64,000 bases of DNA from an uncultured Eubacteriales bacterium (GCA_949841245.1 CATKYT010000003.1:1877-65876); one strand, 5' to 3'. Counted from the stretch's first letter, positions 12,968 through 61,745 are shown. Made by a program: numbers and translations. Notes: generated by a model not told the origin, from the letters alone.

Positions 12968-13023
12968 ATGCATAATACACAATTAAGAGTGTGATATGTG
13001 TCATATTACTCTATATATTGTGT
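12968..13023. repeat. Intergenic palindromic repeat, copy R1 (3-4 units)
   Basis: ATGCATAATACACAAT..TGTGATATGTGTCATATTACTCTATATATTGTGT. It lies between convergent genes and abuts the stop of the pseudouridine synthase gene. Confidence 0.7.
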
Positions 13024-13896
13024 TTATAAATACTTTTTCCAATCAAGTGGATAATCAACTTGAATGAAAATTTTTTGATTTGTTCTGAAATGAATAAACG
13101 AAATTTCTTTTAAAAGCAGAAAGGTATGTGTTTCATTTGGATTTTCTGAATAGATTGAATCGCCAATTAAACTGTTGCCAATGTGACTTAAATGGACTCG
13201 AATTTGATGTGTTCTTCCAGTTTCAAGGGTAACTCTAATCAGTGAATAATTGTTGTAAATTTGTTCTGTGATGACATGAGTTATTGCTTTTTTGCCGTTT
13301 TCTGAAACGACCCTTTTTAATTGGTTGATTCCATTTTCATTTTTTGTCAATATTGGCTGGTTTATGGTAAACTGTTTTTCTGTCAATTTGCCATTACATA
13401 AAGCCATATAGACTTTGTTTATTTTGTTGGTGTTGTTATATGCCAATAAATTTTTGACTATAACAACAATTCCGGCAGTTTCTCTGTCCAGACGATTTAA
13501 AATCCTTAAAACAAAATTGGGTTGTTTGTCATTCATATAATGGCAAACTTGACCGCCAAGATTGTCGCAGTAATGAGATTTTGATGGGGTGCAGGACAAA
13601 TTGTGTGGTTTGTTTACTATTAAATAATCATCATCTTCAAATAGAATATCTAATTTCCCTTCACACAGGTGAATATTGGTTTTTATATTGGGGTTTTTGT
13701 GGATTTCTAAAACATCGCCATTTTTCAATTTTTGATTTATTTTTACATATTCGCCATTTAATTTCATGGAGTTTGGAAAAGTTCTTAAATTTTTTATATA
13801 ATGCTCGGAAAAATTATTATTTTTCAAAAAGAAAAATATGGTGGGTTGTTTAAGCGATGAGATGTTTTCTATTAGGAATTTTTCATATTCTATCAT
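13024..13896 (-). CDS. RluA-family pseudouridine synthase
   Basis: NRLDRETAGIVVI catalytic Asp motif and GRTHQIRVHLSHIG motif, with an N-terminal S4-like region. Confidence 0.85.
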   Translation of the reverse strand: MIEYEKFLIENISSLKQPTIFFFLKNNNFSEHYIKNLRTFPNSMKLNGEYVKINQKLKNGDVLEIHKNPNIKTNIHLCEGKLDILFEDDDYLIVNKPHNLSCTPSKSHYCDNLGGQVCHYMNDKQPNFVLRILNRLDRETAGIVVIVKNLLAYNNTNKINKVYMALCNGKLTEKQFTINQPILTKNENGINQLKRVVSENGKKAITHVITEQIYNNYSLIRVTLETGRTHQIRVHLSHIGNSLIGDSIYSENPNETHTFLLLKEISFIHFRTNQKIFIQVDYPLDWKKYL

Positions 13897-13951
13897 TTGA
13901 ATAATAGTAACATATTTGGCGGTTTTATGGCAAATTATTTGGTTAATTTGC

Positions 13952-13980
13952 TTGACTATAATTTTTTACTATGTTAAAAT
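13952..13980 (+). promoter_or_regulatory. pheST promoter
   Basis: TTGACT (13952-13957), 17 nt spacer, TAAAAT (13975-13980). Confidence 0.55.
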
Positions 13981-13989
13981 TACTGCATA

Positions 13990-14232
13990 TTTAAAGACTA
14001 TGATGAAAGAGCAGTAAGTTTTGATGTTTTCCACAGAGAGCCTAAGTTTGCTGAGATTAGGCGAAAATGAAATTCTGAATTCACTTTCTAGTTGCTTCTT
14101 GAAGGATTTGTTTGAATTTGTGTAGGGAATGCCGTTTGACATGCGTTAAGTGTTTGAATGAGGTGTTTTAAACACGAAATTAGGTGGTACCACGGTTATA
14201 TAAATCGTCCTAATGTTTGGGCGATTTTTTTG
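13990..14232 (+). promoter_or_regulatory. T-box riboswitch leader (Phe specifier expected) with terminator
   Basis: AGAGA box at ~14034. UUC-A candidate specifier in GAATTCACT (~14076). Conserved T-box sequence AAATTAGGTGGTACCACGG (14177-14195). Terminator AATCGTCC..GGGCGATTTTTTT (14203-14231). It lies directly upstream of pheS. Confidence 0.85.
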
Positions 14233-14260
14233 TTGCTTAAAGATTTTTAAAGGAGAGATT

Positions 14261-15280
14261 ATGAAAGATAAACTTAAAGAAATTTTGAAAAATGGCTTAC
14301 AAAAAGTGGAAGAACTTGTTGATTTAAAGGCTTTGGATGAAGTCAGAGTTAAATTTCTTGGAAAAACGGGTGAACTTACTCAAATTTTGCGTGGAATGAA
14401 AGATGTTCCTGCGGAAGACAGAAAAGAAGTTGGCTCAATTGCCAATAATGTCAGAGTTAAACTTGAAGAAGCGATAACCAACAAATTGTGCGAACTTGAA
14501 AATGCTAAACTTTTGGCTGACATGGAAAAAGAAAAGGTGGATATAACAGAACCAAGCAAAGGAACAAAAAAAGGTGCTTTGCATCCTTTAACTCGTTTTA
14601 ATAACAAGTTTATGCAGTTGTGTGTTGAAATGGGCTTCACGGTTATTCAAACCCCTGAAATTGAAACTGATTATTATAATTTTGAAGCGTTGAATGTTCC
14701 AAAAAACCATCCTGCAAGAGATATGCAAGATAGTTTATATATTACAGACACAATTTTGATGAGAACTCACACTTCTCCTGCACAGGTTAGGGCAATGGAA
14801 ACTTTGAAACCACCTTTTAAAATTGTTTGTCCAGGCAGAGTTTACAGAAATGATAATGACAGTTCGCATTCTCCAATTTTTAACCAGTTCGAAGCGCTTG
14901 TTATCGATGAAAACATTGGTTTGAAAGATTTTATGACTATGGTTAAAGAAATGGCTGTTCGTTTGTATGGTGAAGATGTTAAGATGAGAGTAAGACCATC
15001 TTATTTTCCGTTTACTGAGCCAAGCATTGAAATTGATGCAACTTGCCAGTTGTGTAAAGGCAAGGGTTGTTCGCTTTGTAAAGGAACGGGTTTTTCTGAA
15101 TTCTTTGGGGGTGGAATTGTAAATCCTGTCATTTTGGAAATGTCTGGAATTGACAGCAACAAATATAGCGGTTTTGCCTTTGGTCCTGGAATTGACAGAA
15201 GTGTTATGGTGACCAACAAAATTCCAAATATTAAATATTTGTTTAGAAACGATTTAAGATTTTTGAAACAAATGAAATGA
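14261..15280 (+). CDS. pheS: Phenylalanine--tRNA ligase alpha subunit
   Basis: ATG 14261 follows AAGGAGAG. The ORF-track start at 14213 would include the T-box terminator. Class II motifs RTHTSPAQVR, GRVYRND and FGPGIDR are present. Confidence 0.95.
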   Translation: MKDKLKEILKNGLQKVEELVDLKALDEVRVKFLGKTGELTQILRGMKDVPAEDRKEVGSIANNVRVKLEEAITNKLCELENAKLLADMEKEKVDITEPSKGTKKGALHPLTRFNNKFMQLCVEMGFTVIQTPEIETDYYNFEALNVPKNHPARDMQDSLYITDTILMRTHTSPAQVRAMETLKPPFKIVCPGRVYRNDNDSSHSPIFNQFEALVIDENIGLKDFMTMVKEMAVRLYGEDVKMRVRPSYFPFTEPSIEIDATCQLCKGKGCSLCKGTGFSEFFGGGIVNPVILEMSGIDSNKYSGFAFGPGIDRSVMVTNKIPNIKYLFRNDLRFLKQMK

Positions 15281-15323
15281 TATGTTGATGTGTTATGCGT
15301 GAATACTACGCAATATTTTGTGT
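15281..15323. repeat. Intergenic palindromic repeat, copy R2
   Basis: TATGTTGATGTGTTATGCGTGAATACTACGCAATATTTTGTGT, immediately after the pheS stop and inside the pheS-pheT spacer. Confidence 0.55.
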
Positions 15324-15346
15324 TTTGATTTTTAAAGGAGAAGAAA

Positions 15347-17755
15347 ATGAAAATTTCTTATAATTGGTTGAAAGACTTTGTTGACATTACAGAAAGTGCA
15401 GAAGAAGTTGCACAAAAGTTGACTGTTTCAGGATTTGAAGTTGAAGATTTAATTTATGTTAATAAATATCTTCATGATGTTTATGTGGGGCATATTGAAA
15501 AAATTGAAAGACATCCACAGGCTGACAGACTTGTGGTTTGCCAAGTTAATGTTGGAGATAAAAATGTTCAGATTGTGACATCTGCCACAAATGTGTTTGA
15601 AGGTGCTTATGTTCCTGTTTCTTTGGATGGTGCATCACTTGCAAATGGGGTTGAGATTAAACCAACAAATTTTCGTGGTGTAAAAAGTGATGGGATGTTT
15701 TGTTCTGGTGAAGAACTTGGAATTGATGATAACTATTTTGAAGGTGCAAGTGTCAATGGAATTTTGATTTTGCCAAAAGATTTTAAGGCTGGGCAAAAGA
15801 TTGAAGATGCTTTGATGCTTAATGATGTTGTTTATGATGTCAATGTAACTCCAAACAGACCAGATTGCAACAGTGTTGTTGGAATTGCTCGTGAAGTGTG
15901 TGCAATTTATGGTAAGAAGTTTAAAAATCCAGATTATAACTTTGAAACTGTAAGTGATAATGTTGAGAATTACATCAGTGTAGAAGTTAAAACAAAAGAA
16001 TGTCCAAGATATATGGGTGCTTATATTAAAGACATAAAGTTGGAGCGTTCTCCACTTTGGTTGAGAAGCAGATTGCATGCTGTTGGAATTAAACCTATTA
16101 ATAATATGGTTGACATAACAAATTATGTTTTGGTTGAACAAGGGCAACCAATGCATGCTTTTGATTATAGATATTTGGATGGTAAGAAAATTGAAGTAAG
16201 GCAGGCTGAAAAAGGTGAAAAAATTGCCGTTTTAAACGGAAACACTTATGATTTGGATGAAAGCGTGATGGTTATTGCTGACGCTAAGAAACCGGTTGTA
16301 ATTGCTGGTGTTATTGGTGGTGTGAATTCTTGCATCAGCGAACAAACAACAGAAACTGTTTTTGAATGTGCAGTTTTTGATTTAAAAAGTGTGCGTTTAA
16401 CAGCAAGAAAATTTGGTTTGTCCACAGATTCTTCGGCAAGATATTCAAAAGGTGTAAACATAAACAGTCCTACTTTTGCAATGAAGCGTGCTTTGAACTT
16501 GGTTTATCAGTTGAAATGTGGCAAAATTGTTGATGGTATTATTGATAAATGTTCTGTTAAAATTGCAGAAGAAAAGATAATTAAAGTTTCTTATGCTAAG
16601 ATAAGTAAAATTTTGGGAATTGAAATTCCAAAAGAAAAAATGCTTCAAATATTAAGTGATTTGGGTGTTGAAAGTTCTGTTCAGGGAGATGTGATTACTT
16701 GTGTTTTGCCATATTTAAGGGAAGATCTTAAAAATGATAACGATATTGCAGAAGAAATTATCAGAATTTATGGTTATGATGTTTATAACAATGTTGAAGG
16801 AAAGCCTTTTGAAGGTGCAAATGTAACGGTTGGAAAATTTAATGAAAGACTTTCTTTTGAAAATGGTTTGAAAAACATTTTGGTTGACAATGGTTTTTAT
16901 GAAACATTAAACTATTCACTTTATTCTGCAAGTGCATGTGATAAATTGCTTTTGGCTTCTGATGATGAAAGAAGAAAGGTTATTAAGATTGCAAATCCAA
17001 TAAGTGAAGATTTGTCGACAGTAAGAACTGTTATGGCTCATGCTTTGCTGTTGGATGTTGCATATAATTTGTCAGTTGGAAATAAAGATTTAAGATTTTT
17101 TGAAGTGGGCAGGGTATATCAGGCAAAGGATTTGCCTTTGAAAGAACTTCCTGTTGAAAAGAATAAAATTTCATTGGCAGTTTGTGAAAATGGTTTTGAT
17201 TTCTTTGAATTGAAAGGTATTGTTGAAAATCTGCTTCTTGGAACATCTTTGGAATATAAACTTGAACGATCTAAAGAACCTTATCTTCACAGTGGTGTAA
17301 GTGCTGATATAATCGCAAAAGACGGAACATTGGTTGGAAGTTTTGGAAAAGTTCATAAAACAGTTTTGAAAAACTATGAAATAAATCAAGATGTATATTA
17401 TGCTGAACTTGATACGGACTTTTTATCAAGTTTACCTGAAAAACAATTTGCAACAAAAGAAATTTCTAAATATCCAACAGTTGAGCGTGATTTGGCAGTT
17501 GTAGTTGATGAAAAGGTGACAAATGCTGAACTTGAAAGTGCAATAAAATCTGCCTGTGGAAAAATTTTCTTTGAAGTTAGATTGTTTGATGTTTATCGTA
17601 ATGTGCTTCTTGGAAAAGACAAAAAGAGTATGGCTTATAAGATTGTCTTTATGTCAGATGATAAAACTTTGACAAGTGAAGAAATAAATTTGGCTGTAAA
17701 CAAAGTTTTAAAAAGTTTGGAATTCAGATTTGGTGCAAAATTAAGACAAGTTTAA
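15347..17755 (+). CDS. pheT: Phenylalanine--tRNA ligase beta subunit
   Basis: 802 aa with N-terminal MKISYNWLKDFV and a tRNA-binding domain, plus B3/4, B5 and FDX-ACB-like regions. It follows pheS. Confidence 0.95.
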   Translation: MKISYNWLKDFVDITESAEEVAQKLTVSGFEVEDLIYVNKYLHDVYVGHIEKIERHPQADRLVVCQVNVGDKNVQIVTSATNVFEGAYVPVSLDGASLANGVEIKPTNFRGVKSDGMFCSGEELGIDDNYFEGASVNGILILPKDFKAGQKIEDALMLNDVVYDVNVTPNRPDCNSVVGIAREVCAIYGKKFKNPDYNFETVSDNVENYISVEVKTKECPRYMGAYIKDIKLERSPLWLRSRLHAVGIKPINNMVDITNYVLVEQGQPMHAFDYRYLDGKKIEVRQAEKGEKIAVLNGNTYDLDESVMVIADAKKPVVIAGVIGGVNSCISEQTTETVFECAVFDLKSVRLTARKFGLSTDSSARYSKGVNINSPTFAMKRALNLVYQLKCGKIVDGIIDKCSVKIAEEKIIKVSYAKISKILGIEIPKEKMLQILSDLGVESSVQGDVITCVLPYLREDLKNDNDIAEEIIRIYGYDVYNNVEGKPFEGANVTVGKFNERLSFENGLKNILVDNGFYETLNYSLYSASACDKLLLASDDERRKVIKIANPISEDLSTVRTVMAHALLLDVAYNLSVGNKDLRFFEVGRVYQAKDLPLKELPVEKNKISLAVCENGFDFFELKGIVENLLLGTSLEYKLERSKEPYLHSGVSADIIAKDGTLVGSFGKVHKTVLKNYEINQDVYYAELDTDFLSSLPEKQFATKEISKYPTVERDLAVVVDEKVTNAELESAIKSACGKIFFEVRLFDVYRNVLLGKDKKSMAYKIVFMSDDKTLTSEEINLAVNKVLKSLEFRFGAKLRQV

Positions 17756-17756
17756 A

Positions 17757-17817
17757 ATTGTAAGTATTATGCAAATTTTATTGACATAATACACAATATA
17801 TTGTGGTATTATGTAAC
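17757..17817. repeat. Intergenic palindromic repeat, copy R3 (3 units, best-preserved copy)
   Basis: ATTGTAAGTATTATGCA-aattttattg-ACATAATACACAATATATTGTGGTATTATGTAAC. The units alternate in orientation. Confidence 0.8.
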
Positions 17818-17828
17818 CTTGGAGTGCT

Positions 17829-18950
17829 ATGATTTATTTAGATAATGCTGGAACTACAAAAATGTTTGATGAATGTGTTGAAGTTGGTCGCAAGTTTTCT
17901 TGTGAAAACTTTTTCAATCCGTCTGCACTTTCTGTGGAAGCATTGGAAATTTCTCGACTTTTGAATGAAACTGAAAAATTCTTTTTAAATAAACTTGGTG
18001 CTTTGCAAGGGAATGTTATTTTTACGGGTTGTGCAACAGAAAGTAATAATTTGGCAGTGCGTGGAAGTTTAAGAACAGGGGATTGGGAATATGTTTTTTC
18101 TGCTGGGGAACATCCGTCTGTTTATAATCAAGCGAAAAAATTTGAACTGGAAGGATTTAAAGTTCATGTTGTGCCATTAAATGAAGATGGGCAAATAGAT
18201 TTGCAGAAATTGCAGTCAGTTTTAAATGAAAAAACAAGGCTTATCAGTGTGATTCATGTCAGCAATGAAACAGGTGCTGTTAATGATTTGCATAAGATAT
18301 GCCAAATTAAAAAGAAAATTTGCCCGAAAGCAATTATTCATGTTGATGGTGTTCAATCTTTTATGAAAATTCCATTTTCTCTTGCTGGATTGGATGTTGA
18401 TTTATATTCTTTTAGTGGTCATAAATTGCATGCACCAAAGGGTGTTGCGGGTTTGTATGTTAAAAATAAATCTGCTTTGAAAGAGTTGTTTTATGGTGGT
18501 GGACAGCAATATGGATTGCGTTCTGGAACGGAAAATGTGGCTGGAATAATGCAGTTTAAGAAAGCAGTGGAACTTATTGATGTCAGATTAAATTTTGATA
18601 AAGTAAAACTTATGAAAGAGAAAATGATTTGCCAGTTATCAAAAGTTAATGGGGTTAAAATTTTTGATTTTGCCGGTTCTCCTTACATATTGAATGTTGT
18701 TTTTGATGGGGTTAAAGGGGAAACAATGCTTCATGCGCTTAATGAAAAAGGTGTGATTGTGGGGCTTGGGAGTGCTTGTTCATCTAAAAAAGCAGGTAAT
18801 CGTGTTTTGGAAAACATAGGGTTTGATAAAGATGTGATTATTTCAAGCGTCAGGATAAGTTTTAATGCTTATCAAACGCTGGAAGAAATTGAAAAAGCGT
18901 GCGAAATAATTGAAGAAGTTTATAAAAATATTAAGGAAAGGGTTTCGTGA
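17829..18950 (+). CDS. Cysteine desulfurase (class V aminotransferase, NifZ/IscS-like) paired with ThiI
   Basis: IYLDNAGTT N-terminus, SFSGHKLHAPKGVAGLYV PLP-Lys motif, and RSGTEN and GSACSS active-site loop. Its stop overlaps the thiI start. Confidence 0.88.
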   Translation: MIYLDNAGTTKMFDECVEVGRKFSCENFFNPSALSVEALEISRLLNETEKFFLNKLGALQGNVIFTGCATESNNLAVRGSLRTGDWEYVFSAGEHPSVYNQAKKFELEGFKVHVVPLNEDGQIDLQKLQSVLNEKTRLISVIHVSNETGAVNDLHKICQIKKKICPKAIIHVDGVQSFMKIPFSLAGLDVDLYSFSGHKLHAPKGVAGLYVKNKSALKELFYGGGQQYGLRSGTENVAGIMQFKKAVELIDVRLNFDKVKLMKEKMICQLSKVNGVKIFDFAGSPYILNVVFDGVKGETMLHALNEKGVIVGLGSACSSKKAGNRVLENIGFDKDVIISSVRISFNAYQTLEEIEKACEIIEEVYKNIKERVS

Positions 18951-20113
18951 TGAGAAATGTTTTGTTGTTGAAATTTGGAGAATTGTTTTTGAAAGGTAAA
19001 AATCGACATGATTTTATTAAACTTCTTAAAACAAATATAACTTATAAATTAAGAGATTTTGTTTTTAAATTGCATGAAACTCAGGGAAGGTTGATTGTAA
19101 GTGATTATGATGAATCTTTTGAAGAAATTATTATTGCTAAATTGCAACAAGTTTTTGGTTTAATTGGTGTTGTGGTTGCTTGTGAATTTGACACAAGTTA
19201 TGAAACCATTCAAGAAAATATAAAAAAATTGGATTTAAGTTTGGTGAAAACTTTTAAAGTGGAAGTTAAGCGCGCAGATAAAAGTTTTCCAATTAAATCT
19301 ATGGATATGGAAAAAGAACTTGGTGGAATTTTATTGGAAGAATTTCCAAATTTAAAGGTGGATTTATATAATCCAGAAATTGTTGTTCATGTGGAAATTC
19401 GAATTAACAACAAAACTTATATATATAGTAAGGTGTATGAATGTGTAGGTGGTTTGCCACTTGGAAGTGGGGGAAAGGCTTTACTTTTGCTTTCTGGTGG
19501 GATTGACAGTCCAGTTGCTGGTTATATGATGGCAAAGCGTGGGTTGAAATTGGAAGCAGTGCATTTTCACTCCTATCCTTACACGAGTGTGCAAGCAAAA
19601 GAAAAGGTTATTGAACTTGCAAAAGAAATTTCGGAGTTTTGTGGTGAGATTAAATTGCACATAGTTTCTTTTACAGAAATTCAAGAACAGATTCATAAAA
19701 ATTGTGATGCAGAATATATGATAACGATTATGCGCAGAATTATGATGAGAATTGCGGAAAGGATTTGTCAGCAAAACAATCTTGGGGCGATTGTAACAGG
19801 TGAAAGTTTAGGGCAGGTGGCAAGTCAAACTATGCAAAGTATGAATGTGACAAACAGTGTTGTTTCACTTCCAGTGTTCAGACCTTTAATCGCTTTTGAT
19901 AAAGAAGATATAATGTCTGTGGCAAGAAAAATTAATACTTATGAAACTTCAATTCTTCCATATGAAGATTGTTGCACTGTCTTTCTTCCAAAATATCCAG
20001 TTATTAAGCCGACCATCAAGCGGGCGGAATATTTGGAAACTAAATTGGATTTGGAGCAATTGATTGAAAAAGCAATTGCAAGTCAAGAAATTTTGGAAAT
20101 AACAAATTTTTAA
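18947..20113 (+). CDS. thiI: tRNA 4-thiouridine synthase ThiI
   Basis: THUMP-type N-terminus, PP-loop LLLSGGIDSPVAGY, and ITGESLGQVASQT. Confidence 0.92.
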   Translation: MMRNVLLLKFGELFLKGKNRHDFIKLLKTNITYKLRDFVFKLHETQGRLIVSDYDESFEEIIIAKLQQVFGLIGVVVACEFDTSYETIQENIKKLDLSLVKTFKVEVKRADKSFPIKSMDMEKELGGILLEEFPNLKVDLYNPEIVVHVEIRINNKTYIYSKVYECVGGLPLGSGGKALLLLSGGIDSPVAGYMMAKRGLKLEAVHFHSYPYTSVQAKEKVIELAKEISEFCGEIKLHIVSFTEIQEQIHKNCDAEYMITIMRRIMMRIAERICQQNNLGAIVTGESLGQVASQTMQSMNVTNSVVSLPVFRPLIAFDKEDIMSVARKINTYETSILPYEDCCTVFLPKYPVIKPTIKRAEYLETKLDLEQLIEKAIASQEILEITNF

Positions 20114-20119
20114 TTTATT

Positions 20120-20148
20120 AAGATATGCTTTAAGTATATCTTTTTTTT
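20120..20148 (+). terminator. rho-independent terminator of thiI
   Basis: AAGATAT-gctttaagt-ATATCTT followed by T8. Confidence 0.7.
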
Positions 20149-20178
20149 ATTTGGTTTTTGCTTAGGTGGCGGTAGGTG

Positions 20179-20353
20179 AAATGTATATTCATTTATAATT
20201 ATAAATTTGAAATTTATAAAATTGCAAAAATTGCAATTTTTATAAAAAATTAGTGAATAAATATACAAAAATCACTTGCATATTTATAAATTTTATTGTA
20301 TAATAATCAAAATTGCATGAATAAACATAAATTTATATTTATGCATAAATCGC
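20179..20353 (+). promoter_or_regulatory. Cluster of ARG-box-like operators overlapping the argR promoter
   Basis: Five 18-mers resemble the ArgR/AhrC box (TGAATAAAAATNCA-like): AAATGTATATTCATTTAT (20179), AGTGAATAAATATACAAA (20252), CTTGCATATTTATAAATT (20275), ATTGCATGAATAAACATA (20312) and ATTTATGCATAAATCGC (20337). An extended -10 TGTATAAT sits at 20297-20304. Confidence 0.6.
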
Positions 20354-20398
20354 TATAAGCCCCTAATTTAGCGGTGTGTAGCAGTTAAGGAGTTGTAT

Positions 20399-20851: not shown

Positions 20852-20872
20852 TTGTTTCGGAGGGGTAAGTTA

Positions 20873-22525: not shown

Positions 22526-22537
22526 ATTAATAAAACA

Positions 22538-22712: not shown

Positions 22713-24500
22713 TTATTTTGAAAATTTTTTGTAAACATATTTTGTGATGTAATAATTGAAAGGAAGGGCAATTAAAAGTCCAAAAATTGGAACTGTTAAG
22801 GATGTAATAAATTTTGCCATTGTTTCCACTTGCATTCCGCAAGCAATGTTTACAACAAAAACAATTAAAACGGCAAGAAGTAAAATAATCCAAATGTGCC
22901 AATCGTTATATTTTAAAACTGCTTTTTTATTTGGTAACATTTTAAAGGCGACAAATGAATAGATTGTGTAAACAAGGAAGACGAGTGGAACGGTGTAAAA
23001 CAAGAAGTTTGTTCCGTTTAAAAGCAATCCTGCGCCATTAATTATTCCGTATAAAATTGCACAGCCAATTCCGCAAACAAGTAAAAGTATGCAAGAATTG
23101 ATAAGGTTGAGAAAATTGGTGTTGTGATTAATGTTTACTGATGACTTTTTATATTCTTTAAAATCAATTCCATGTCCAGCGTAATATCTTTTAAGGCTGT
23201 TGTAATCTGTGAAACTGCTGGCTGTGTTTGTTTGTGTTATTTCCACTTGTTTTTGTGGTGCTGATTTAACGGTGACAGGTTTTTCTTTCTTTCTTTCAAA
23301 CAACTTAGACATCATATCTTTATAAGTTGGCTCTAAGTTACTGTCGCGTTTTGGAGCAGGAAGGTTGTCGTCATAGATGTTAACTTCAATGTTTGCAGGA
23401 CTAATTTTTCTTTGAATAGGAATTTCTTCATCGCGAAGTTTTGGGTTAGTGATGAAAATTGCATCATCTTGTTCGCGTTCTTCGTTTAATATGTCAACTT
23501 TTTCTGTTTGAACTGTTGATTGTTGTGGGGTGTAAGTTGATTGACGATTATTGACTACAGCTTGTTGTTGAATTTGTTGTTGATTTGTCTGTCTTGTTGA
23601 AAGCAAAGATTCTTTAAGTTGTCTTATGCGTTCTCTTTCAAGTTCATCATCTTCTTCTTTTTGATATACAACAGACATTTCAATTTGATTTTCAGAAAAA
23701 CTTTTACGCTTGCGGTATTTTTTAAGTTCGCTTGAAGTGTCATAAAGTCTTTGGTTTTGTTCTTCTTGTGATGCTGTAAGTGATTTAGGTTCGTCTAAGA
23801 ATTTGCCGTCATCAAAAATTTCTTCTTTAATTGTTTCAATTTCTTGTTCTTCGGTGACAGGTGGCAAATCTTGTTGTTCAAGCATGCTTTGATAACGATC
23901 GATTTTTTCTTGTTCTTTTGTTTCTATGTGATCAGTTATAAAAATTCCGCCATCAATAAACTCAGGTTCTTCTTCTGATTCAACGGACAATTCTTCTTCA
24001 ATTTCTTCTTGATTGTTTTGAAAACTGAAAATATCAATTTGGTTTTCAAGAATGTCAGATTTTGTTTCTGTTATGCTTTCTGATTGTGGTTTTTCTTCAT
24101 TTTTAACCATGTCAAAAATGTTGCCTTGTTGCAGGAAAACAGGTTTTTCTTCTGAAACAGTTTCTGCTTGTTCATCATTTTCCGAAAGGTTGGCAGAAAA
24201 ATCAGAGAATGAAATGTTCTCAAATTCTTTTTCAAGTTCTTGCAAAGTGCTTTTGCCAAGGGCTGTTATTGAATAATAATGGCGTTTGCCACCAAGTTCA
24301 CTTTCACTCCAATAAGATGAAGAAATCCAGCCTTTCTTTTCCATGCGTGTAAGGCAAGAATAAAGGGTAGGTTTTTTCAAAATATATTGACCATTTGTTT
24401 GTTTTGAAATGCTTTCAATGATTTCTAAACCATATTTTGAACCGCTTGTAAGACTGTTTAAAACTAAATAAGAAATTTGACTGTTTGAATTAAACGCCAT
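22713..24500 (-). CDS. Membrane-anchored PadR-family transcriptional regulator (wHTH + long acidic/Gln-rich linker + 4 TM)
   Basis: The N-terminus YLVLNSLTSGSKYGLEIIESI...PTLYSCLTRMEKKGWISSSYW...GGKRHYYSITALG is a PadR signature. About 300 aa of E/Q/D-rich low-complexity sequence follow. The C-terminus has four hydrophobic helices (e.g. FLNLINSCILLLVCGIGCAILYGII, WHIWIILLLAVLIVFVVNIACG). Confidence 0.7.
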   Translation of the reverse strand: MAFNSNSQISYLVLNSLTSGSKYGLEIIESISKQTNGQYILKKPTLYSCLTRMEKKGWISSSYWSESELGGKRHYYSITALGKSTLQELEKEFENISFSDFSANLSENDEQAETVSEEKPVFLQQGNIFDMVKNEEKPQSESITETKSDILENQIDIFSFQNNQEEIEEELSVESEEEPEFIDGGIFITDHIETKEQEKIDRYQSMLEQQDLPPVTEEQEIETIKEEIFDDGKFLDEPKSLTASQEEQNQRLYDTSSELKKYRKRKSFSENQIEMSVVYQKEEDDELERERIRQLKESLLSTRQTNQQQIQQQAVVNNRQSTYTPQQSTVQTEKVDILNEEREQDDAIFITNPKLRDEEIPIQRKISPANIEVNIYDDNLPAPKRDSNLEPTYKDMMSKLFERKKEKPVTVKSAPQKQVEITQTNTASSFTDYNSLKRYYAGHGIDFKEYKKSSVNINHNTNFLNLINSCILLLVCGIGCAILYGIINGAGLLLNGTNFLFYTVPLVFLVYTIYSFVAFKMLPNKKAVLKYNDWHIWIILLLAVLIVFVVNIACGMQVETMAKFITSLTVPIFGLLIALPFNYYITKYVYKKFSK

Positions 24501-24565
24501 GACAAATCACTCCTTTTATATATCACGATTATAGAAAAAGAAGAAAATTTTGTCAAATAAATTTA

Positions 24566-24650
24566 GGTATTATGCAAAAAAATTTGAATAATACACCACA
24601 TAGAAATGGTTGTATGCGTTGCATAACACTATATATTGTGGTAATATGTA
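24566..24650. repeat. Intergenic palindromic repeat, copy R4 (about 5 units, longest array)
   Basis: GGTATTATGCA-aaaaaatttg-AATAATACACCACAT..TTGTATGCGTTGCATAACACTATATATTGTGGTAATATGTA. It lies in the divergent promoter region between the PadR-TM gene and the DUF45 peptidase gene. Confidence 0.75.
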
Positions 24651-24710
24651 AAAAATAATCAATTTATGAAATTATTTGGAGTTGCGAAAATAAAGTGTTA
24701 TTATAAATTT

Positions 24711-26570: not shown

Positions 26571-26575
26571 TAAAA

Positions 26576-26634
26576 AATACTACACAAGATTTTGTGTAGT
26601 ATTTATCATAATACGGCAGATATATGGTGTTATG
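26576..26634. repeat. Intergenic palindromic repeat, copy R5 (about 4 units)
   Basis: AATACTACACAAG-at-TTTGTGTAGTATTTATCATAATACGGCAGATATATGGTGTTATG. It lies between the convergent spoIVB and SDR genes, and the first hairpin may double as a terminator. Confidence 0.65.
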
Positions 26635-32010: not shown

Positions 32011-32058
32011 ACGAATTCTTATTTGTTTATTTTGATAAGGATTAAAAAATAAATTTAA

Positions 32059-32105
32059 AATATGTTGTAGTATTATGTAAGCATAACACCACAATATGTA
32101 GTATA
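32059..32105. repeat. Intergenic palindromic repeat, copy R6
   Basis: AATATGTTGTAGTATTATG-taag-CATAACACCACAATATGTAGTATA, between obg and yhbY. Confidence 0.75.
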
Positions 32106-39270: not shown

Positions 39271-39541
39271 TTACTGGGCGGATGCTTCGTCACAATAACA
39301 CCGATTGCCTTACAAATTTTCAACTCCATCAAAGTTTCCTTATGGCACATCAACCGATCTCCTTAATGATGCTTCCGTCAGGACCTGACATGGTTCGAAG
39401 GGGATGATTGCATAAGACCTTAATTTCAACATTAAAAATTTGCACACATCTTCGACATAATTGTGCCTAAGACAACTGTTCGACCTTGCTAAGCGGGTTG
39501 CAAGTTACAGGGCACCGCTAACTCCCCATCTAGCCCAGTAT
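39271..39541 (-). ncRNA. ffs: Signal recognition particle RNA, long Bacillus type (scRNA with Alu domain)
   Basis: The minus-strand sequence ...GGGGAGTTAGCGGTGCCCTGTAACTTGCAACCCGCTTAGCAAGGTCGAA... closely parallels the B. subtilis scRNA 5' domain. The domain IV motif CATGTCAGGTCCTGACGGAAGCATCATTAAG is present. The 5' TACTGGGC pairs with the 3' GCCCAGTA. Length is ~271 nt. A terminator lies at 39240-39268 and a consensus promoter upstream. Confidence 0.9.
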
Positions 39542-48359: not shown

Positions 48360-48368
48360 ATACTGTTG

Positions 48369-48406
48369 ATTGTGGTGTTATGCTGGCATACTTCCACAAT
48401 ATATTG
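48369..48406. repeat. Intergenic palindromic repeat, copy R7
   Basis: ATTGTGGTGTTATGC-tg-GCATACTTCCACAATATATTG, just after the proS stop. A canonical terminator follows at 48409-48432. Confidence 0.75.
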
Positions 48407-48477
48407 AAAAACTAGGGCTAGACCTAGTTTTTTCTTATGCTTGTCCTAAAATTGGAAATTGATAAATATAATATTAC

Positions 48478-49290: not shown

Positions 49291-49470
49291 TTGACAGGTG
49301 GATTTGTTGTATGTTAATATAAGGCAGTAAGAAAGCAGAAGTCCACCTTCTCACCCGCCGAATTTCGTTTTGGTGTGGTCAAAAATTTTGAATATTTTAT
49401 TCTTGTTTTTGATTTTTAGGTAGGGCTTTTATGCGTCCTACCTTTTGTTTTATTTTTAAAATAAAACTCA
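49291..49470 (+). promoter_or_regulatory. infC-rpmI-rplT promoter and putative L20-leader attenuator
   Basis: TTGACA (49291-49296), 18 nt spacer, TAATAT. A ~150-nt structured leader ends in the terminator GGTAGGGC-ttttatgc-GTCCTACC plus a T run (~49420-49450). The position matches the Firmicute L20 leader. Confidence 0.5.
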
Positions 49471-52872: not shown

Positions 52873-53466
52873 ATGATTGCTTATTTAGTTGGTGTTATTG
52901 AAGAAAAAAATGAAAACACTGTTGTTGTAGATGTCAATGGTGTTGGATATGAACTTTGTGTTTCAAACAATACGCTTGTTTCTTTGCCAATGGTTAATGA
53001 AACTGCAAAGATTTTGACTTATATGCAAGTTAAAGAAGATGGAATTGCACTTTTTGGATTTGCAAATGCAGAAGAAAAGTCTTTGTTTTTAAAACTTATC
53101 ACTGTTTCAGGAATTGGTCCTAAAATGGCAATTACAATTCTTTCTGGCATAAGAATGTCAGACTTAGTTGTGGCAATTTTAAGTGACGATGTGAATTTAC
53201 TTTCAAAAATCAAAGGTTTAGGCAAGAAATCTGCGGAACGAATTTGTTTGGAACTTAAAGATAAAGTTTCTGCTGGAAACATTGTTGGTGAAGATACATT
53301 GCTTTCTGTAAATTACAACGAAAATGCTTTGAATGATGCAGTTGACACACTTATTAATCTTGGAATCAACAAAAATGAAGCATACAGACTGGCAAGAAGC
53401 AAGGCGACAGATGATGTGACAGCGGAAGAAATCATTTTGAAAGTTTTAAGAGAAATTGGAAGATGA
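52873..53466 (+). CDS. ruvA: Holliday junction DNA helicase RuvA
   Basis: MIAYLVGVI N-terminus. HhH motifs SGIGPKMA and GLGKKSAERI. Confidence 0.92.
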   Translation: MIAYLVGVIEEKNENTVVVDVNGVGYELCVSNNTLVSLPMVNETAKILTYMQVKEDGIALFGFANAEEKSLFLKLITVSGIGPKMAITILSGIRMSDLVVAILSDDVNLLSKIKGLGKKSAERICLELKDKVSAGNIVGEDTLLSVNYNENALNDAVDTLINLGINKNEAYRLARSKATDDVTAEEIILKVLREIGR

Positions 53467-53518
53467 CAATATGTTGTGTATTATGCATTTAGTAAAACGG
53501 CATACTACACTAAATATA
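53467..53518. repeat. Intergenic palindromic repeat, copy R8
   Basis: CAATATGTTGTGTATTATGCA-tttagtaaaacg-GCATACTACACTAAATATA. It begins at the first base after the ruvA stop, within the ruvA-ruvB spacer. Confidence 0.7.
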
Positions 53519-53649
53519 ACCTGCGAAAATAAATCTTATTTTAGATTCGCCAAATTAAAGAAAGGAGATTGGGACAGAAAATCAAGTTTAAGAAGATTAT
53601 GAAAAATGCTTTTTATGGAAGAAAAATTTGATTTAATCCCAAAATGTTT

Positions 53650-54651: not shown

Positions 54652-54659
54652 GAGGAATT

Positions 54660-55370
54660 ATGAAACTAATTTTAAGTGGTGGTGGCTCAGGAGAACAAGT
54701 AAAAGAAAGTTATAAAGTTTTCAGTAATCTTGTTGGCAATGGTAAAGTTTTATATGTTCCATTAGCATGGAATCATGGTGGGTATGATGGTTGCTTAGAT
54801 TGGTTTAAAAGTGAGATGAAATCATTTGGCATTGTTGATATTGATATGATAACTAATGCAAATGAAATCTCCGAAGAACGATTGAAGAAAGTTAAAGGTA
54901 TTTTTATAGGAGGTGGTAACACTTACAAATTATTGAAAATGTTGAAAGAATCACCAGCATACGAAAATATCAAAACTTTTATGAAGCGAAAAGATAGTGT
55001 TATAATGGGTGGAAGTGCTGGTGCGTTGATATTTGGCAGAAGTATTGATACTTGCTTAAATGATGGACTTGTGTTAAAATCTTGTGTTGATGAAAATCAA
55101 GTAGGTTTGAAAGACACAACAGGGTTTGATTGTTTGAATGGTTACAGCATTTTACCACATTATAAAAAATTGCCTGAGCAATATGAGATATTTAAAATTA
55201 GAATAAATAGATTGCTTGAAGAAGGTTTTAAATTGATATGTATTCCAGAAGAAACAAGTATTTATGTTGATGATAGAAAATATAAAGTCATAGGCCGGAG
55301 ACCAGTAGAGATCTTTACAAAACAAAATCAAATTTCAAAAAATGTAAAAGAAGAAATTATTTTAAAATAA
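54660..55370 (+). CDS. Peptidase S51 (PepE-like) family protein
   Basis: FIGGGNTYKLL and nucleophile region MGGSAGALIFG; 236 aa. Confidence 0.7.
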   Translation: MKLILSGGGSGEQVKESYKVFSNLVGNGKVLYVPLAWNHGGYDGCLDWFKSEMKSFGIVDIDMITNANEISEERLKKVKGIFIGGGNTYKLLKMLKESPAYENIKTFMKRKDSVIMGGSAGALIFGRSIDTCLNDGLVLKSCVDENQVGLKDTTGFDCLNGYSILPHYKKLPEQYEIFKIRINRLLEEGFKLICIPEETSIYVDDRKYKVIGRRPVEIFTKQNQISKNVKEEIILK

Positions 55371-55400
55371 TTTTCTTTTTAACATTAAAAGGGTTATATT

Positions 55401-56020
55401 ATGAAAAGAATTTTATGCTATGGAGATTCTAATACATGGGGTACAATTCCTAATACTTGGAATGGGAGATATGATGAGAATACTCGTTGGACAAAACTCC
55501 TTGCAAAAAAATTAGGGAGAAATTTTGAAATTATTGAAGAAGGATTCAGAGGAAGGAATACGGGCTTTGATGATATTGTTTTTCCTCGTGGTAATCGTAA
55601 TGGTGCGATTACATTTCCATCTTGTATAGTAACACATGATCCGATAGACTATTGTATAATAATGCTTGGAACAAATGATATGAAACAAGAGTTTAATGTT
55701 ACAACTCAGATTTCTGCAAAAAATATTGAAGATAATTTTATAAAGTTTTTGAAAGAAAATCTTGTTGTTGATTTAATAAAACTTCCTAAAATTATAATTG
55801 TTGCACCAAATGTTATGAAAGATAAAGTAGAAAAGTTTAAAGGTGCACAGGAAAAGTCGAAAAACTTTAACAAAGATTATGAAGAAATAACTAAAAGAAA
55901 TGAGTGCTGGTTTATTGATAATACTGGTTTATGTCCAGGAGATGACGGTATTCATTTAACTGCAGAAAGCCATGCAATTTTAGCAAGAAAATTGGCTGAT
56001 TTAATTAAGAGGATTGACTA

Positions 56021-56021
<1 letters not shown>
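55401..56021 (+). CDS. SGNH/GDSL hydrolase
   Basis: Block I ILCYGDSNTWG, block III MLGTNDM and block V DGIHLT. Confidence 0.8.
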
Positions 56022-58188
<2,167 letters not shown>

Positions 58189-58200
58189 TGGAGAAAATTA

Positions 58201-58692
58201 ATGAAATATTTTTGGAGAGAGAAAAATGCAATAAAGTGTATTGGAAAATTTCAAGTTTTTGAGCCAACAGTGCAAGAGTTAGAGAAAGAACTTATATTAA
58301 AGTTTGAACAAAAATTAAATAGAATAAATATTATATTTGACAAAAATGCAAGAAAGGCGTATTACCAACAAGATAAAAAGCCTAAACAAGATATAACTGG
58401 ACTTACAGAAAAACAAATTCAACAAAAATTAGGTCTAAGAGTAGTAGTTGATTTTTTTCAACTTATTAAAGATTTATGCAACTTCTATGAAATTGATATA
58501 AAAACTGAAAAAATTGACTATTATTTATCAAATGATGAGATTAAAACTAAAAAATGCTTAGAAAACATATATTACTGTATAGTCTCTTTGACGAAACTTA
58601 TTGATATTGATATGGAAACAGCTGAAAATGAGCGCAAAGAAAAAGAAAATGAAGAAGGTAACTTTCTTCATGGTAAATATGTAATTTGGTAA
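58201..58692 (+). CDS. Hypothetical soluble protein (163 aa)
   Basis: RBS GGAGAAAA. No recognisable motif. It occupies the position where yajC follows tgt in many Firmicutes but has no TM helix. Confidence 0.5.
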   Translation: MKYFWREKNAIKCIGKFQVFEPTVQELEKELILKFEQKLNRINIIFDKNARKAYYQQDKKPKQDITGLTEKQIQQKLGLRVVVDFFQLIKDLCNFYEIDIKTEKIDYYLSNDEIKTKKCLENIYYCIVSLTKLIDIDMETAENERKEKENEEGNFLHGKYVIW

Positions 58693-58819
58693 AAAGAAAA
58701 TTTTTAAATAAAAAATATAGGGCAGGTTTGTAAGATTTTTGATATTTTTTGTATGTGATTTTATTAATTGTTAAGCAAAAATATTGAAAGGTGATTAATT
58801 TTTTGAAAAAATAATAAAA

Positions 58820-58861
58820 GCGTATCTATTCGGAAAAGACAGGTTTTCCGAATAGATACGC
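58820..58861. terminator. Perfect 18-bp hairpin, probable bidirectional terminator
   Basis: GCGTATCTATTCGGAAAA-gacagg-TTTTCCGAATAGATACGC. It is flanked by an A-rich 5' side and a T-containing 3' side, between convergent transcription units. Confidence 0.6.
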
Positions 58862-58914
58862 TATATATTGCGCATAGAATTAAATAACACTTACAATATA
58901 TTGTATTATGCAAT
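58861..58914. repeat. Intergenic palindromic repeat, copy R9
   Basis: CTATATATTGCGCATAGAATTAAATAACACTTACAATATATTGTATTATGCAATA, adjacent to the 18-bp hairpin. Confidence 0.6.
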
Positions 58915-59013
58915 AAAATTTGTGTTTTTTTATATTCAATAAATTATCAAATTTTAATAAATTTTTTTATAAAAATTTTAATTATGTTTAATAAAAAAAC
59001 TAAGATGTTTCTC

Positions 59014-59415
59014 TTAGTTTTGTTTATTTGCTTTTTTCAGTTCTTTTTCTTTTTTCTTATAATAGTTTTCTATTGCTGCTCTGATTGATTCTTCTGCCAA
59101 AATTGAGCAGTGAATTTTATGTGCTGGAAGTTCTCCAAGAAGTGAAACAACATCTTTATTTGTGACTTTCAATGCTTCATCAATTGTTTTTCCTTTAATC
59201 AAATCACAAGCAATATCAGTTGAAGCAATGGCAGCACAGCAACCAAAAGTTTTAAATTTTGCATTTTCAATAACTCCATTGTCATTGATTTTTAAATACA
59301 TTTTCATAATGTCGCCACATGCTGCATTTCCAACTTGTCCAACAGCATTTGCTCCATGCATTGAACCAGCATTTTTTGGATTTTGAAATCTTTCTAAAAC
59401 TGTTTTGCTATACAT
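59014..59415 (-). CDS. nifU: Fe-S cluster assembly scaffold NifU/IscU
   Basis: NPKNAGSM, GNAACGD, FKTFGCCAAIAS and HCS motifs. A terminator overlaps the stop. Confidence 0.93.
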   Translation of the reverse strand: MYSKTVLERFQNPKNAGSMHGANAVGQVGNAACGDIMKMYLKINDNGVIENAKFKTFGCCAAIASTDIACDLIKGKTIDEALKVTNKDVVSLLGELPAHKIHCSILAEESIRAAIENYYKKKEKELKKANKQN

Positions 59416-59417
59416 AA

Positions 59418-60593
59418 TTAAAACCTCCCTGGTTGAACTGGTGAAATTGCTCTGAGTTTGTTTATTGCTTTGCGAATTTCTTCAACAACATAGTCAATAT
59501 CAGATTTTGAAGTGTTTATACCAAAAGAAAATCTTATTGAACCTTGTGCAATTTCGTCAGGAACTTTCATTGCTTTCAAAACATGTGATGGAAGAAGAGA
59601 TTTTGATGTGCATGCAGATGAAGTTGAAACACAAATTCCAGCCAAATCCAAAAGCATAAGTAAAGATTCTCCTTCAACTCCATAGAAAGATACATTAAGA
59701 ATAGCGTTTGATTTTTGGTGTTTATGCCCGTTAATTTGGAAATATTCCACCTTTTCAGACAGTTTTTCAACAAAATAATCTCTTGTTGATTTCAATTTTC
59801 TGCTTGTCAATGCTTGATTTCTGCAAGCTGTTTCAACTGCTTTGCCAAGTCCAGCGATTCCAGCAACATTTTCTGTTCCTGCTCGTTTTCCTCTTTCTTG
59901 GCTGTCTCCACCAAAAGTTATTGGATCGATTTTAACTCCGCTTTTAACATACAAAGCGCCAACGCCCTTTGGTCCATGAATTTTATGTCCTGAAATTGAT
60001 AAAGCATCGATTTCCATATCTTGAACATTAATGTTAAGATTTCCGATTGCTTGAACAGCGTCAGAGTGGAAAACCACATCATAATCATGAGCAATTTTTG
60101 CGATTGTTTTGATGTTTTGAATTGTTCCGACTTCGTTGTTTACTGCCATGATTGAAATTAAAGTTGTTCCTTTTTTAATGGCATGTAAAAGTTCTGTGAT
60201 GTTTACAAGACCTGTTTCATCAACTGGCAAATATGTCACTTGATAACCTTCTTTTTCAAGATAATGACAAGCATTTAACACAGCATGATGTTCGATTTGG
60301 CTTGTAATGATGTGTTTACCCTTGTTTGCATAAGCATGAGCAATTCCAATAACAGCCCAATTATCTGCTTCTGTTCCGCCACTTGTGAAGTAAATTTCGC
60401 TTGATTTTTTTGCGTTGATTGCTTCTTTAATTCTATCTCTTGCCTTATCTAAAACTGCAACAGAACTACGACCAAAACTGTGGAGTGAACCAGCGTTTCC
60501 GTAGATGGTGTTGAAACATGGCAACATTTCGTTTAAAACTTCATTTGAGACATAAGTTGTTGAAGCGTTGTCTAAATAAATCTTTCTATCCAT
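59418..60593 (-). CDS. nifS: Cysteine desulfurase NifS
   Basis: ATG 60593 follows AAAGGA (MDRKIYLDNASTT). PLP-Lys SISGHKIHGPKGVGALYV and active-site SSACTS. The ORF-track extension to 60656 covers the promoter. Confidence 0.93.
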   Translation of the reverse strand: MDRKIYLDNASTTYVSNEVLNEMLPCFNTIYGNAGSLHSFGRSSVAVLDKARDRIKEAINAKKSSEIYFTSGGTEADNWAVIGIAHAYANKGKHIITSQIEHHAVLNACHYLEKEGYQVTYLPVDETGLVNITELLHAIKKGTTLISIMAVNNEVGTIQNIKTIAKIAHDYDVVFHSDAVQAIGNLNINVQDMEIDALSISGHKIHGPKGVGALYVKSGVKIDPITFGGDSQERGKRAGTENVAGIAGLGKAVETACRNQALTSRKLKSTRDYFVEKLSEKVEYFQINGHKHQKSNAILNVSFYGVEGESLLMLLDLAGICVSTSSACTSKSLLPSHVLKAMKVPDEIAQGSIRFSFGINTSKSDIDYVVEEIRKAINKLRAISPVQPGRF

Positions 60594-60627
60594 TTTTGTT
60601 CCTTTTAATATAAAATTTAACAACTTT

Positions 60628-60656
60628 ATTGTAACACTAAAAAAAGTTATTGTCAA
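60628..60656 (-). promoter_or_regulatory. nifSU promoter
   Basis: On the minus strand: TTGACA (60656-60651), 17 nt spacer, TACAAT (60633-60628). Confidence 0.55.
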
Positions 60657-60684
60657 TACTTATTTTAAAAAGCAAAACAAGTTT

Positions 60685-60993
60685 TTATAAATATTTTTCC
60701 ACTGTTTCAACCAAATCATCTTTGTTCCAAAGGCCTATATGTTTTTCCACTTCTTCGCCATTTACAAAAACTATTATAGTAGGAATGCTCACAATGCCAA
60801 ATTTGCGAGCCAAATTTTGACTTTCATCAACATCAACTTTGTAGATTTTGGCTTTTTCTCCCAAAGTTTCTTGGCAATCTTCCAAGATTGGAGACATCAT
60901 TCTGCAAGGTCCACACCAAGTTGCAAAAAAGTCGATTACAACAACTCCATCTTTAATTTTTTCTTCAAATTCTTTGTCTTTTAAAATTTCCAT
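60685..60993 (-). CDS. trxA: Thioredoxin
   Basis: Active site WCGPC; 102 aa. Confidence 0.94.
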   Translation of the reverse strand: MEILKDKEFEEKIKDGVVVIDFFATWCGPCRMMSPILEDCQETLGEKAKIYKVDVDESQNLARKFGIVSIPTIIVFVNGEEVEKHIGLWNKDDLVETVEKYL

Positions 60994-61006
60994 AAAATCC
61001 CCCTAT

Positions 61007-61693
61007 TTATTTTATTATTTTTGTCACAATAAAAGCACTTAATACACAGCCACACATTGCTGGATAATATGCTATACTGCCGATTTCTTTGTTTTCTGTT
61101 TTGATTGGCAAATGTTCGCTTATAACAACATCCAAAGAAATAATGTTATTTTCACGAAGTTTTTTTCGCATAATTTTTGCCAATCCATCGTTGCATGTTT
61201 TGTAAATATCCATAATTTTGAATGATGGAACATCAATTCTGTTTCCTGCTCCCATGGCTGAAACGATGTTTATGTTTTTTTCTTTGCAATGCTTAATCAA
61301 ATTTACTTTATTTGAAATGTCATCAATGGCATCAACAACATAATCAAAGTTTTTCGTAATTATTTGTTCAATATTTTCACTGCAAAGTCTTTCATCGTAT
61401 GTTGTCACTTTGCATTTTGGGTTTATTTCCAAAATTTGCTGTTTCATAATTTGGGTTTTAAATTGACCAACAGTTTTGGTGTTTGCAACCACTTGTCTAT
61501 TTATGTTTGTTTCGTCAACTTTGTCAAAATCAACAAGTGTAAGATTTTCAATTCCACAACGAGCAAGCATTAAGCAAACATATCCGCCAACTCCACCAAT
61601 TCCTACAACAGCAACTTGACTTTTTTTAAGTTTGTTAATTCCTTCTTTACCAACCAATATTTCAGTTCTGTCTGTCCACATTTGTTTCTCCAT
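61007..61693 (-). CDS. tcdA: tRNA threonylcarbamoyladenosine dehydratase (ThiF-family, TcdA/YgdL-like)
   Basis: VAVVGIGGVGGY nucleotide loop and LVDFDKVDETNINRQ; 228 aa. Confidence 0.8.
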   Translation of the reverse strand: MEKQMWTDRTEILVGKEGINKLKKSQVAVVGIGGVGGYVCLMLARCGIENLTLVDFDKVDETNINRQVVANTKTVGQFKTQIMKQQILEINPKCKVTTYDERLCSENIEQIITKNFDYVVDAIDDISNKVNLIKHCKEKNINIVSAMGAGNRIDVPSFKIMDIYKTCNDGLAKIMRKKLRENNIISLDVVISEHLPIKTENKEIGSIAYYPAMCGCVLSAFIVTKIIK

Positions 61694-61698
61694 TATTT

Positions 61699-61745
61699 CA
61701 ATATATTGTGGTGTTATGCAATATAAATATTACATAATACACAAC
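61699..61745. repeat. Intergenic palindromic repeat, copy R10
   Basis: CAATATATTGTGGTGTTATGCA-atataaatatta-CATAATACACAAC, between hslU and tcdA (co-directional, minus strand). Confidence 0.75.

Follow-up and report, generated by a model that had tools for sequence, protein, structure and literature searches.

The DNA analyzed here is a 64,000-nucleotide stretch (the window) from an uncultured Eubacteriales bacterium (GCA_949841245.1, CATKYT010000003.1:1877-65876), and it raises the question of what a short palindromic repeat is doing in ten of its intergenic spacers. An original prediction, made from the sequence alone, had described these repeats as resembling the repetitive extragenic palindromes (REP) and bacterial interspersed mosaic elements (BIME) of enterobacteria. 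We found that the dispersed, extragenic, palindromic units do alternate in orientation in a BIME-like layout, and that the parts of that description involving RNA hairpins and REP-associated tyrosine transposases (RAYT) are unsupported. On balance, motif comparisons suggest that the elements are conserved protein-binding sites at the level of DNA, most likely bound by NrdR at loci other than those of ribonucleotide reductase (RNR).

A conserved extragenic repeat family

We read all ten sites directly and found the shared unit in each, at a density of approximately one site per 5 to 6 kb. The 16-mer quoted in the original prediction has 11 matches in the window with up to three mismatches, compared to 1.5 expected, a count that was not attained in any of 100 shuffles. 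With a profile derived from 10 seed units, we obtained 13 matches at E < 0.7, all 13 of them in the intergenic DNA that makes up about 6.5 kb of the 64-kb window (~10%). Coding DNA contains two box-like sequences that score 12 bits or more, at positions 250 and 50845, and no others; both lack the flanking motif. We also scanned 13 loci of relatives chosen via RecN (60 to 90% RecN identity, 32 to 43% GC), which come from metagenome-assembled genomes of uncultured Clostridia/Eubacteriales with labels that include Candidatus Caccovivens, Catabacter, and Christensenella. In 325 kb of clade DNA (12.9% non-coding), 70 of 77 matches fall in the non-coding fraction, a number that rises to as many as 76 when crude gene calls in the loci are discounted. 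The repeat family that was first observed is real, and it is conserved and extragenic.

When units were aligned by gapless anchoring to the consensus, each consisted of a 16-bp palindromic box, ACACAATATATTGTGG, followed by TATTATGCA; written with its variants, the unit is ACACAATATATTGTG(G/T) and then (T)RTTATGCA(A). Tail-to-tail units share one box and head-to-head units give a box-linker-box arrangement. The units are halves of an approximately 48-bp palindromic DNA element made of the box ACACAATATATTGTGK, the linker ATTATGCA.TGCATAAT, which is lengthened by about 11 bp in some copies, and a second 16-bp box. Of 73 intergenic boxes, 58 have a flank similar to TRTTATGCA on one or both sides. 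The hairpin and the 29-bp palindrome that had been quoted for the family were recovered at 61705-61744 and 17785-17813, respectively. The unit composition given for the ten sites held for the unit as such, with the TATGCA part missing at 26576 and from part of 58861, and the earlier count of about 27 units hinges on how degenerate a copy is admitted. The described placement was also borne out: units lie at or near stop codons at 15281, 17757, and 53467 (9 nt away at 48369), in convergent spacers at 12968, 26576, and 58861, in a divergent spacer at 24566, and in co-directional spacers at the remaining six sites.

All 13 relatives have the unit, and in them it occupies the same pheS-pheT, pheT-iscS, divergent padR/ygjP, and convergent spoIVB spacers, and the obg-yhbY site recurs in the few relatives where it could be checked. 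For example, the box pair of site 2 has an ortholog in 12 of the 13 RecN loci (the other, L005, does not hold the pheS-pheT spacer), and the array at site 4 is conserved in 10 of 10 relatives checked. The occupancy of the same orthologous spacers argues against recent mobility. Orthologous sites retain the boxes and TATGCA, with loops that have diverged in sequence, and between species the non-key box positions vary while the key positions hold. This drift of the loops with retention of the unit at shared spacers points to vertical inheritance under selection rather than the variable occupancy of a mobile REP.

A metagenome scan with the query ATATTGTGTATTATGCA returned 120 loci, mostly single chance matches, and only seven were clade-like (L064, L078, L089, L091, L099, L111, and L112). 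On the L099 contig the gene order differs from that of the window, yet elements are found upstream of a ThiF/TcdA gene and downstream of nifU. The L091 contig (4714-5915) is one of few cases in which occupancy differs between relatives: pheS and pheT are about 12 nt apart without an element between them, and a box pair lies upstream of pheS instead. A scan of viral contigs gave four single matches and was uninformative. One IMG/VR contig (L136, GC 42%) has ATATTGTGTAGTTATGCAAATTTTATTGCAC at its very edge (73-90), close to the left unit and loop of site 3; the match may represent host DNA flanking a prophage in a member of this clade.

Likeness of the boxes to NrdR operators

NrdR is a Zn-ribbon/ATP-cone repressor of RNR genes whose DNA-binding form is a tetramer with dATP and ATP bound; it is found in approximately 77% of bacterial genomes and is treated as a dedicated RNR repressor. 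Its operators at RNR promoters were reportedly described by Rodionov and Gelfand in 2005 as two 16-bp boxes with a 15- to 16-bp spacer. We found that the tail-to-tail junction of two repeat units is a canonical NrdR box and that the spacing of the boxes is that of NrdR operators, two features that had been missed in the first reading of the sequence.

The NrdR box has six conserved positions, C4, A6, A8, T9, T11, and G13 (PMC13584703). The consensus ACACAATATATTGTGG carries all six, and a strong box with six of six key positions is present at each of the ten window sites (Table 1). This consensus is identical at 15 of 16 positions to a validated binder, ACACAATATATAGTGG, which binds ScoNrdR at 45 nM and EcoNrdR at 41 nM (PMC13584703), and the sole difference is at position 12, a non-conserved position where box 1 of E. 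coli nrdEF likewise has T (PMC13584703). NrdR boxes have at least 63% AT between C4 and G13 (PMC13584703), and the cores of the boxes reported here (AATATATT, TATATATT, AAGATTTT, and similar) are 88 to 100% AT.

In 45 units without a detected abutting partner, the outer half-box has frequencies of 0.78 for C4, 0.80 for A6, and 0.98 for A8, compared to 0.44 at position 5 and 0.53 at position 7. For a control, units were located by the inner half and linker alone, so that detection was independent of the outer half; in 58 terminal units found in this way, the outer half retained C4 at 0.52 (background, 0.17), A6 at 0.69, and A8 at 0.74. Since these outer half-box bases remain conserved outside any possible stem, the box, and not a hairpin arm, is the conserved unit. 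The pattern of fixed and free positions follows the NrdR logo.

Binding by NrdR needs two boxes, with preferred spacers of 14 to 17 bp and a second optimum at 24 to 27 bp, corresponding to three or four helical turns (PMC12051234). The center-to-center distance was 31 to 33 bp in 23 of the box pairs described here and 43 to 45 bp in five, and only three other distances between 17 and 80 bp were seen (23, 30, and 76 bp). When the best partner was taken for each of 75 strong boxes, 49 had it at 30 to 34 bp and 15 at 41 to 46 bp, for a total of 64 of 75 in the two ranges. This constant spacing persists in pairs without the usual palindromic linker (58858/58891 in the window and 15733/15764 in locus L001). 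The position of the second box relative to genes is also similar, as box 2 of the Listeria nrdDG operator ends 13 bp before the ATG (PMC12051234) and the distance from box 2 to the start codon is 12 to 23 bp for yhbY, iscS, and pheT (12 nt before the ATG in the case of yhbY, site 6) and 2 to 14 bp for tcdA. In addition, NrdR proteins bind heterologous boxes in vitro (PMC13584703).

The data establish the identity of the motif, the spacing of the boxes, their extragenic restriction, their conservation at orthologous sites, and a lack of RNA-structure signals, while which protein binds the elements and what it regulates are inferred. NrdR, or a protein of the same specificity, would bind the elements on double-stranded DNA at many intergenic sites away from RNR genes; the sites would date back to the clade's common ancestor and have been maintained by purifying selection, and their occupancy would depend on dATP and ATP. 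Where box 2 lies beside a ribosome-binding site (pheT, iscS, yhbY, and tcdA), a bound tetramer could be a roadblock. The outermost box of site 4 overlaps the -35 element of the promoter of a PadR-like gene, the only window site that overlaps a promoter, and the array there could occlude it. The set of sites as a whole could be a chromosome-wide reservoir that titrates NrdR.

Weighing NrdR against other explanations

Several observations weigh against assigning the elements to NrdR. The sites lie in intercistronic, 3', or convergent spacers and not at the promoters of RNR operons, where NrdR operators are located, and 3 of the 10 are in convergent spacers with no promoter to repress. No nrdR or nrd gene was found in the window or in any locus that we retrieved, including the seven clade-like metagenome loci, and a tblastn search with E. 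coli NrdR gave no match in approximately 0.33 Mb of clade DNA or in the other retrieved loci. Genome-wide searches of E. coli and P. aeruginosa found box pairs at RNR operons only, so that a genome-wide set would be without precedent, and we found no paper in the literature that ties NrdR to repeat elements. The spacing evidence is also open to another account: a repeat unit of fixed length alone would yield a constant short spacing, and the spacers of the long class (27 to 29 bp) are at or 1 to 2 bp past the upper edge of the tested 24- to 27-bp range. Most window sites consist of one full box and one partly degenerate partner. Finally, the TATGCA linker positions are near invariant in the unit alignment, while the sequence of known NrdR operator linkers is not conserved (PMC13584703), and this is unexplained by NrdR binding as currently understood.

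The linker brings in the main rival, a protein that reads a longer half-site. Such a sequence-specific DNA-binding protein, for example a clade-specific nucleoid-associated or domain-boundary protein, would read the whole half-element ATATTGTGG-TATTATGCA, and the likeness to NrdR boxes would have arisen by convergence or been inherited from an ancestor. In its favor, conservation of the TATGCA part equals or exceeds that of the box, and TATGCA is not known to be recognized by NrdR; the adjacent genes have no common function, convergent spacers are well represented, and a spacing of whole helical turns suits any protein that bridges two sites on the same face. We nevertheless consider this explanation unlikely: the box differs at one position from a validated NrdR binder, its fixed and free positions match the NrdR logo, the preferred spacings equal those of NrdR, and there is no known candidate protein.

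More doubtful is the proposal that these are REP/BIME-like elements, that is, RNA hairpins in 3' untranslated or intercistronic regions that act in mRNA stabilization, processing, or termination and were perhaps spread by a RAYT. The elements are indeed strictly extragenic with units of alternating orientation, and most sites are in transcribed DNA, either between a stop codon and a terminator or between cotranscribed genes. There are good folds, of -15 to -18 kcal/mol, in loci L008, L009, and L011, and the box of site 5 lies in a 30-bp palindrome (26575-26604) followed by a T-run on the - strand, a terminator-like arrangement that may double as a terminator. However, four tests (strand asymmetry of folding, covariation of the arms, fold stability, and conservation of half-boxes outside the stem) give an RNA hairpin no support. 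Predicted folds showed no advantage of the transcribed strand, with the sense strand folding better at nine sites and the antisense strand at six (means of -7.1 and -6.7 kcal/mol, respectively), and many conserved pairs fold at only 0 to -5 kcal/mol. Complementarity between arms is no greater within a site than between sites (P = 0.18 for box halves and P = 0.49 for linker halves), a mismatch of AGTATG opposite CATAAT is kept in six species, and half-boxes are conserved where no stem includes them. Linkers that are longer than usual gain their extra length in increments of about 11 bp, and the site 4 array, which is located upstream of the -35 element of a perfect sigma-A promoter, probably lies in untranscribed DNA.

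The mobility expected of REP elements was also not seen. Occupancy is conserved across species at 60 to 90% RecN identity, the elements are AT rich and lack a GTAG-type 5' motif, and no Y1/RAYT transposase was found among the window genes (Pfam/NCBIfam) or in the retrieved loci, nor with tblastn of the window and those loci using an IS200 TnpA query, which has weak reach for distant RAYTs. A search of Rfam, both at the gathering threshold and at E ≤ 1, placed no family over the elements, in line with the original prediction, which did not recognize the unit as a described family.

It is less probable still that the elements are fossils of a selfish amplification, in which an ancestral nrd operator or a small miniature inverted-repeat transposable element was copied around and its copies persist without present function. 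Copying would explain why the whole 48-bp unit, linker included, is common to the sites, and many partner boxes in the window are decaying. Neutral copies, however, would lose the key positions and spacing across genomes of 32 to 43% GC; the surrounding spacer is no longer similar by eye, the loops of orthologous sites diverge around retained boxes and TATGCA, and inspection by eye revealed neither target-site duplications nor terminal inverted repeats extending beyond the element.

That the units are promoters is hardly credible: the variant TGGTATTAT fits an extended -10 element (TGnTATAAT) and has TTGACA upstream at 17781, but with TTGCAT or TTGACA as the -35 the spacers are 18 to 20 bp (20 bp at site 3), position 2 of the putative hexamer, the expected -11A, is A or G about equally, the TG register is disrupted where a G is inserted or deleted, units also occur in convergent spacers, and a consensus promoter scan does not pick them out. 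Other candidates were rejected as well. The units do not have the GC-rich hairpin and U-run of intrinsic terminators (a T-run is found at the palindrome of site 5 only, and separate canonical terminators adjoin sites 1, 7, and 9). The orientation or spacing did not fit the motifs of the DnaA box, Rex/CRP, Fur/PerR/Zur, the ARG box, CIRCE, CtsR, parS, NBS, dif/Xer, or the -10 elements of sporulation sigma factors.

If NrdR is the binding protein, a broader role is conceivable, which we offer tentatively. In this lineage NrdR might be a global dATP/ATP-sensing DNA-binding protein, with hundreds of conserved two-box sites per genome, rather than an RNR-specific repressor. Stalled replication and a rise in dATP would then load tetramers onto intergenic sites and block read-through into housekeeping genes such as pheT, iscS-thiI, yhbY, ruvB, and tcdA; by buffering free NrdR, the set of sites would make RNR expression follow DNA content, and the conserved, flexible linker TATGCATGCATA would be a lineage-specific adaptation to a strongly bent NrdR-DNA complex. 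Such an expanded role would link nucleotide pools to global transcription or chromosome structure. Alternatively, the family may represent an operator that was copied and then domesticated as a repeat. For annotators, the elements suggest that REP-like repeats can be disguised transcription-factor sites.

Sites, surroundings, and comparison with known systems

The coordinates and box composition of the ten sites are collected in Table 1.

Table 1. Repeat sites in the window and the promoter that adjoins site 4
Feature	Position	Strand	Strong-box start	Context and boxes
Site 1	12967..13023	.	13008	Convergent spacer between a hypothetical gene and an RluD-like gene; weak box 12977-12992, strong box 13008-13023, centers 31 bp apart; array between the stop codon of the - strand gene and the shared terminator at ~12940-12965
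Site 2	15275..15323	.	15308	pheS-pheT spacer; degenerate box overlapping the pheS stop; strong box ACGCAATATTTTGTGT 15308-15323; centers 33 bp apart
Site 3	17748..17817	.	17791	pheT-iscS spacer; half-box over the pheT stop, 27-bp linker, perfect box ACACAATATATTGTGG 17791-17806 with TATTATG on either side; architecture repeated in relatives
Site 4	24551..24651	.	24626	Divergent spacer between PadR-like and YgjP-like genes; three boxes, ~24551-24566, 24596-24611, and 24626-24641
Sigma-A promoter of PadR-like gene	24528..24556	-		TTGACA-17-TATAAT, 12/12 positions; adjoins the site 4 array
Site 5	26575..26630	.	26582	Convergent spacer between spoIVB and a YmfI-like gene; box ACACAAGATTTTGTGT 26582-26597, degenerate partner 26615-26630
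Site 6	32055..32104	.	32089	obg-yhbY spacer; boxes 32055-32070 (weak) and 32089-32104; centers 34 bp apart
Site 7	48360..48409	.	48394	3' of proS, between the stop codon and an intrinsic terminator; boxes 48360-48375 (weak) and 48394-48409; centers 34 bp apart
Site 8	53464..53522	.	53464	ruvA-ruvB spacer; box TGACAATATGTTGTGT 53464-53479 over the ruvA stop, 27-bp linker, partner 53507-53522
Site 9	58858..58913	.	58858/58891	Convergent spacer beside nifU; full boxes 58858-58873 and 58891-58906; centers 33 bp apart; linker without TATGCA
Site 10	61696..61754	.	61696	hslU-tcdA spacer, - strand genes; box 61696-61711 adjoins the tcdA start, 27-bp linker, partner 61739-61754

The window has 33% GC and a strong strand bias, and, from Pfam and NCBIfam scans, it carries genes for housekeeping and sporulation that are those of a Clostridium-like bacterium: polA, pheST behind a T-box, iscS-thiI, and argR-recN; the PadR-like gene, spoIVB, lysS, and obg-yhbY; the spoIIIA operon, nusB, xseA, proS, and infC-rplT; and ruvCAB, queA-tgt, nifU-nifS, tcdA, and hslUV. 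An exact-protein lookup with the PheT of the window gave no entry on record. The PadR-like gene encodes a 595-amino-acid protein (22713-24500, - strand) in which the PadR domain is confined to the first ~100 residues and the remainder has no family match; the gene and its perfect promoter are kept in relatives.

Ordinary features of the window include the T-box leader upstream of pheS (13991-14215, + strand) and a large, Bacillus-type signal recognition particle RNA gene (39274-39538, - strand). A match to the ribosomal protein L20 leader upstream of infC-rplT (49327-49454, + strand) spans the full length of the model and scores 47.7 bits (E = 2e-6), short of the Rfam gathering threshold of 58.7 bits. 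Upstream of polA, a + strand block of genes (1498-8050), mostly without family matches and with a P22-like portal protein at 1999-3843, resembles an inserted prophage or phage remnant and contains no copies of the repeat family. At a 320-bp, AT-rich spacer (GC ~25%) between 58500 and 59500, gene orientation switches from + to - and the GC skew drops from about +0.2 to approximately -0.15. Because minus-strand genes elsewhere in the window do not have a reversed skew, this flip may mark a replication terminus or the breakpoint of an inversion; a search for sites like the dif of B. subtilis or E. coli gave none with six or fewer mismatches.

Of the known systems, NrdR operators are similar to the elements in having a 16-bp partial palindrome with C4, A6, A8, T9, T11, and G13 and an AT-rich core, in pairing boxes whose centers are three or, less often, four helical turns apart, and in that box 2 can sit just upstream of a start codon. 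In contrast to those operators, the elements lie away from RNR genes in 3', intercistronic, and convergent spacers, number about 10 in 64 kb compared to three operators per E. coli genome, have a linker that is itself a conserved palindrome (TATGCA.TGCATA), and include three-box arrays. The REP/BIME elements of enterobacteria, including the RIB/RIP subclass with an IHF site, share the extragenic position, high copy number, embedding in transcription units, alternating unit orientation, and linkers of discrete lengths, and they too can be a platform for a host DNA-binding protein. The elements described here differ from them in being AT rich, often weakly folding, and without a GTAG-type motif; no RAYT was found with them in the window or retrieved loci, their occupancy is conserved across genera where species-specific sequence and variable occupancy are expected of REP, and the recognizable protein site is an NrdR box and not an IHF or gyrase site. 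The inverted pairs of DNA uptake sequences in Neisseria (DUS) and uptake signal sequences in Haemophilus (USS) are also short motifs kept across relatives, often downstream of genes; uptake sequences are common inside genes, unlike the elements, and have no counterpart to the box and spacing logic seen here. Clusters of DnaA boxes such as datA provide many non-promoter sites that buffer an adenine nucleotide-dependent regulator, and while datA is a single locus and the elements are a dispersed family, it offers, purely by analogy, a model for the titration role that the sites could have.

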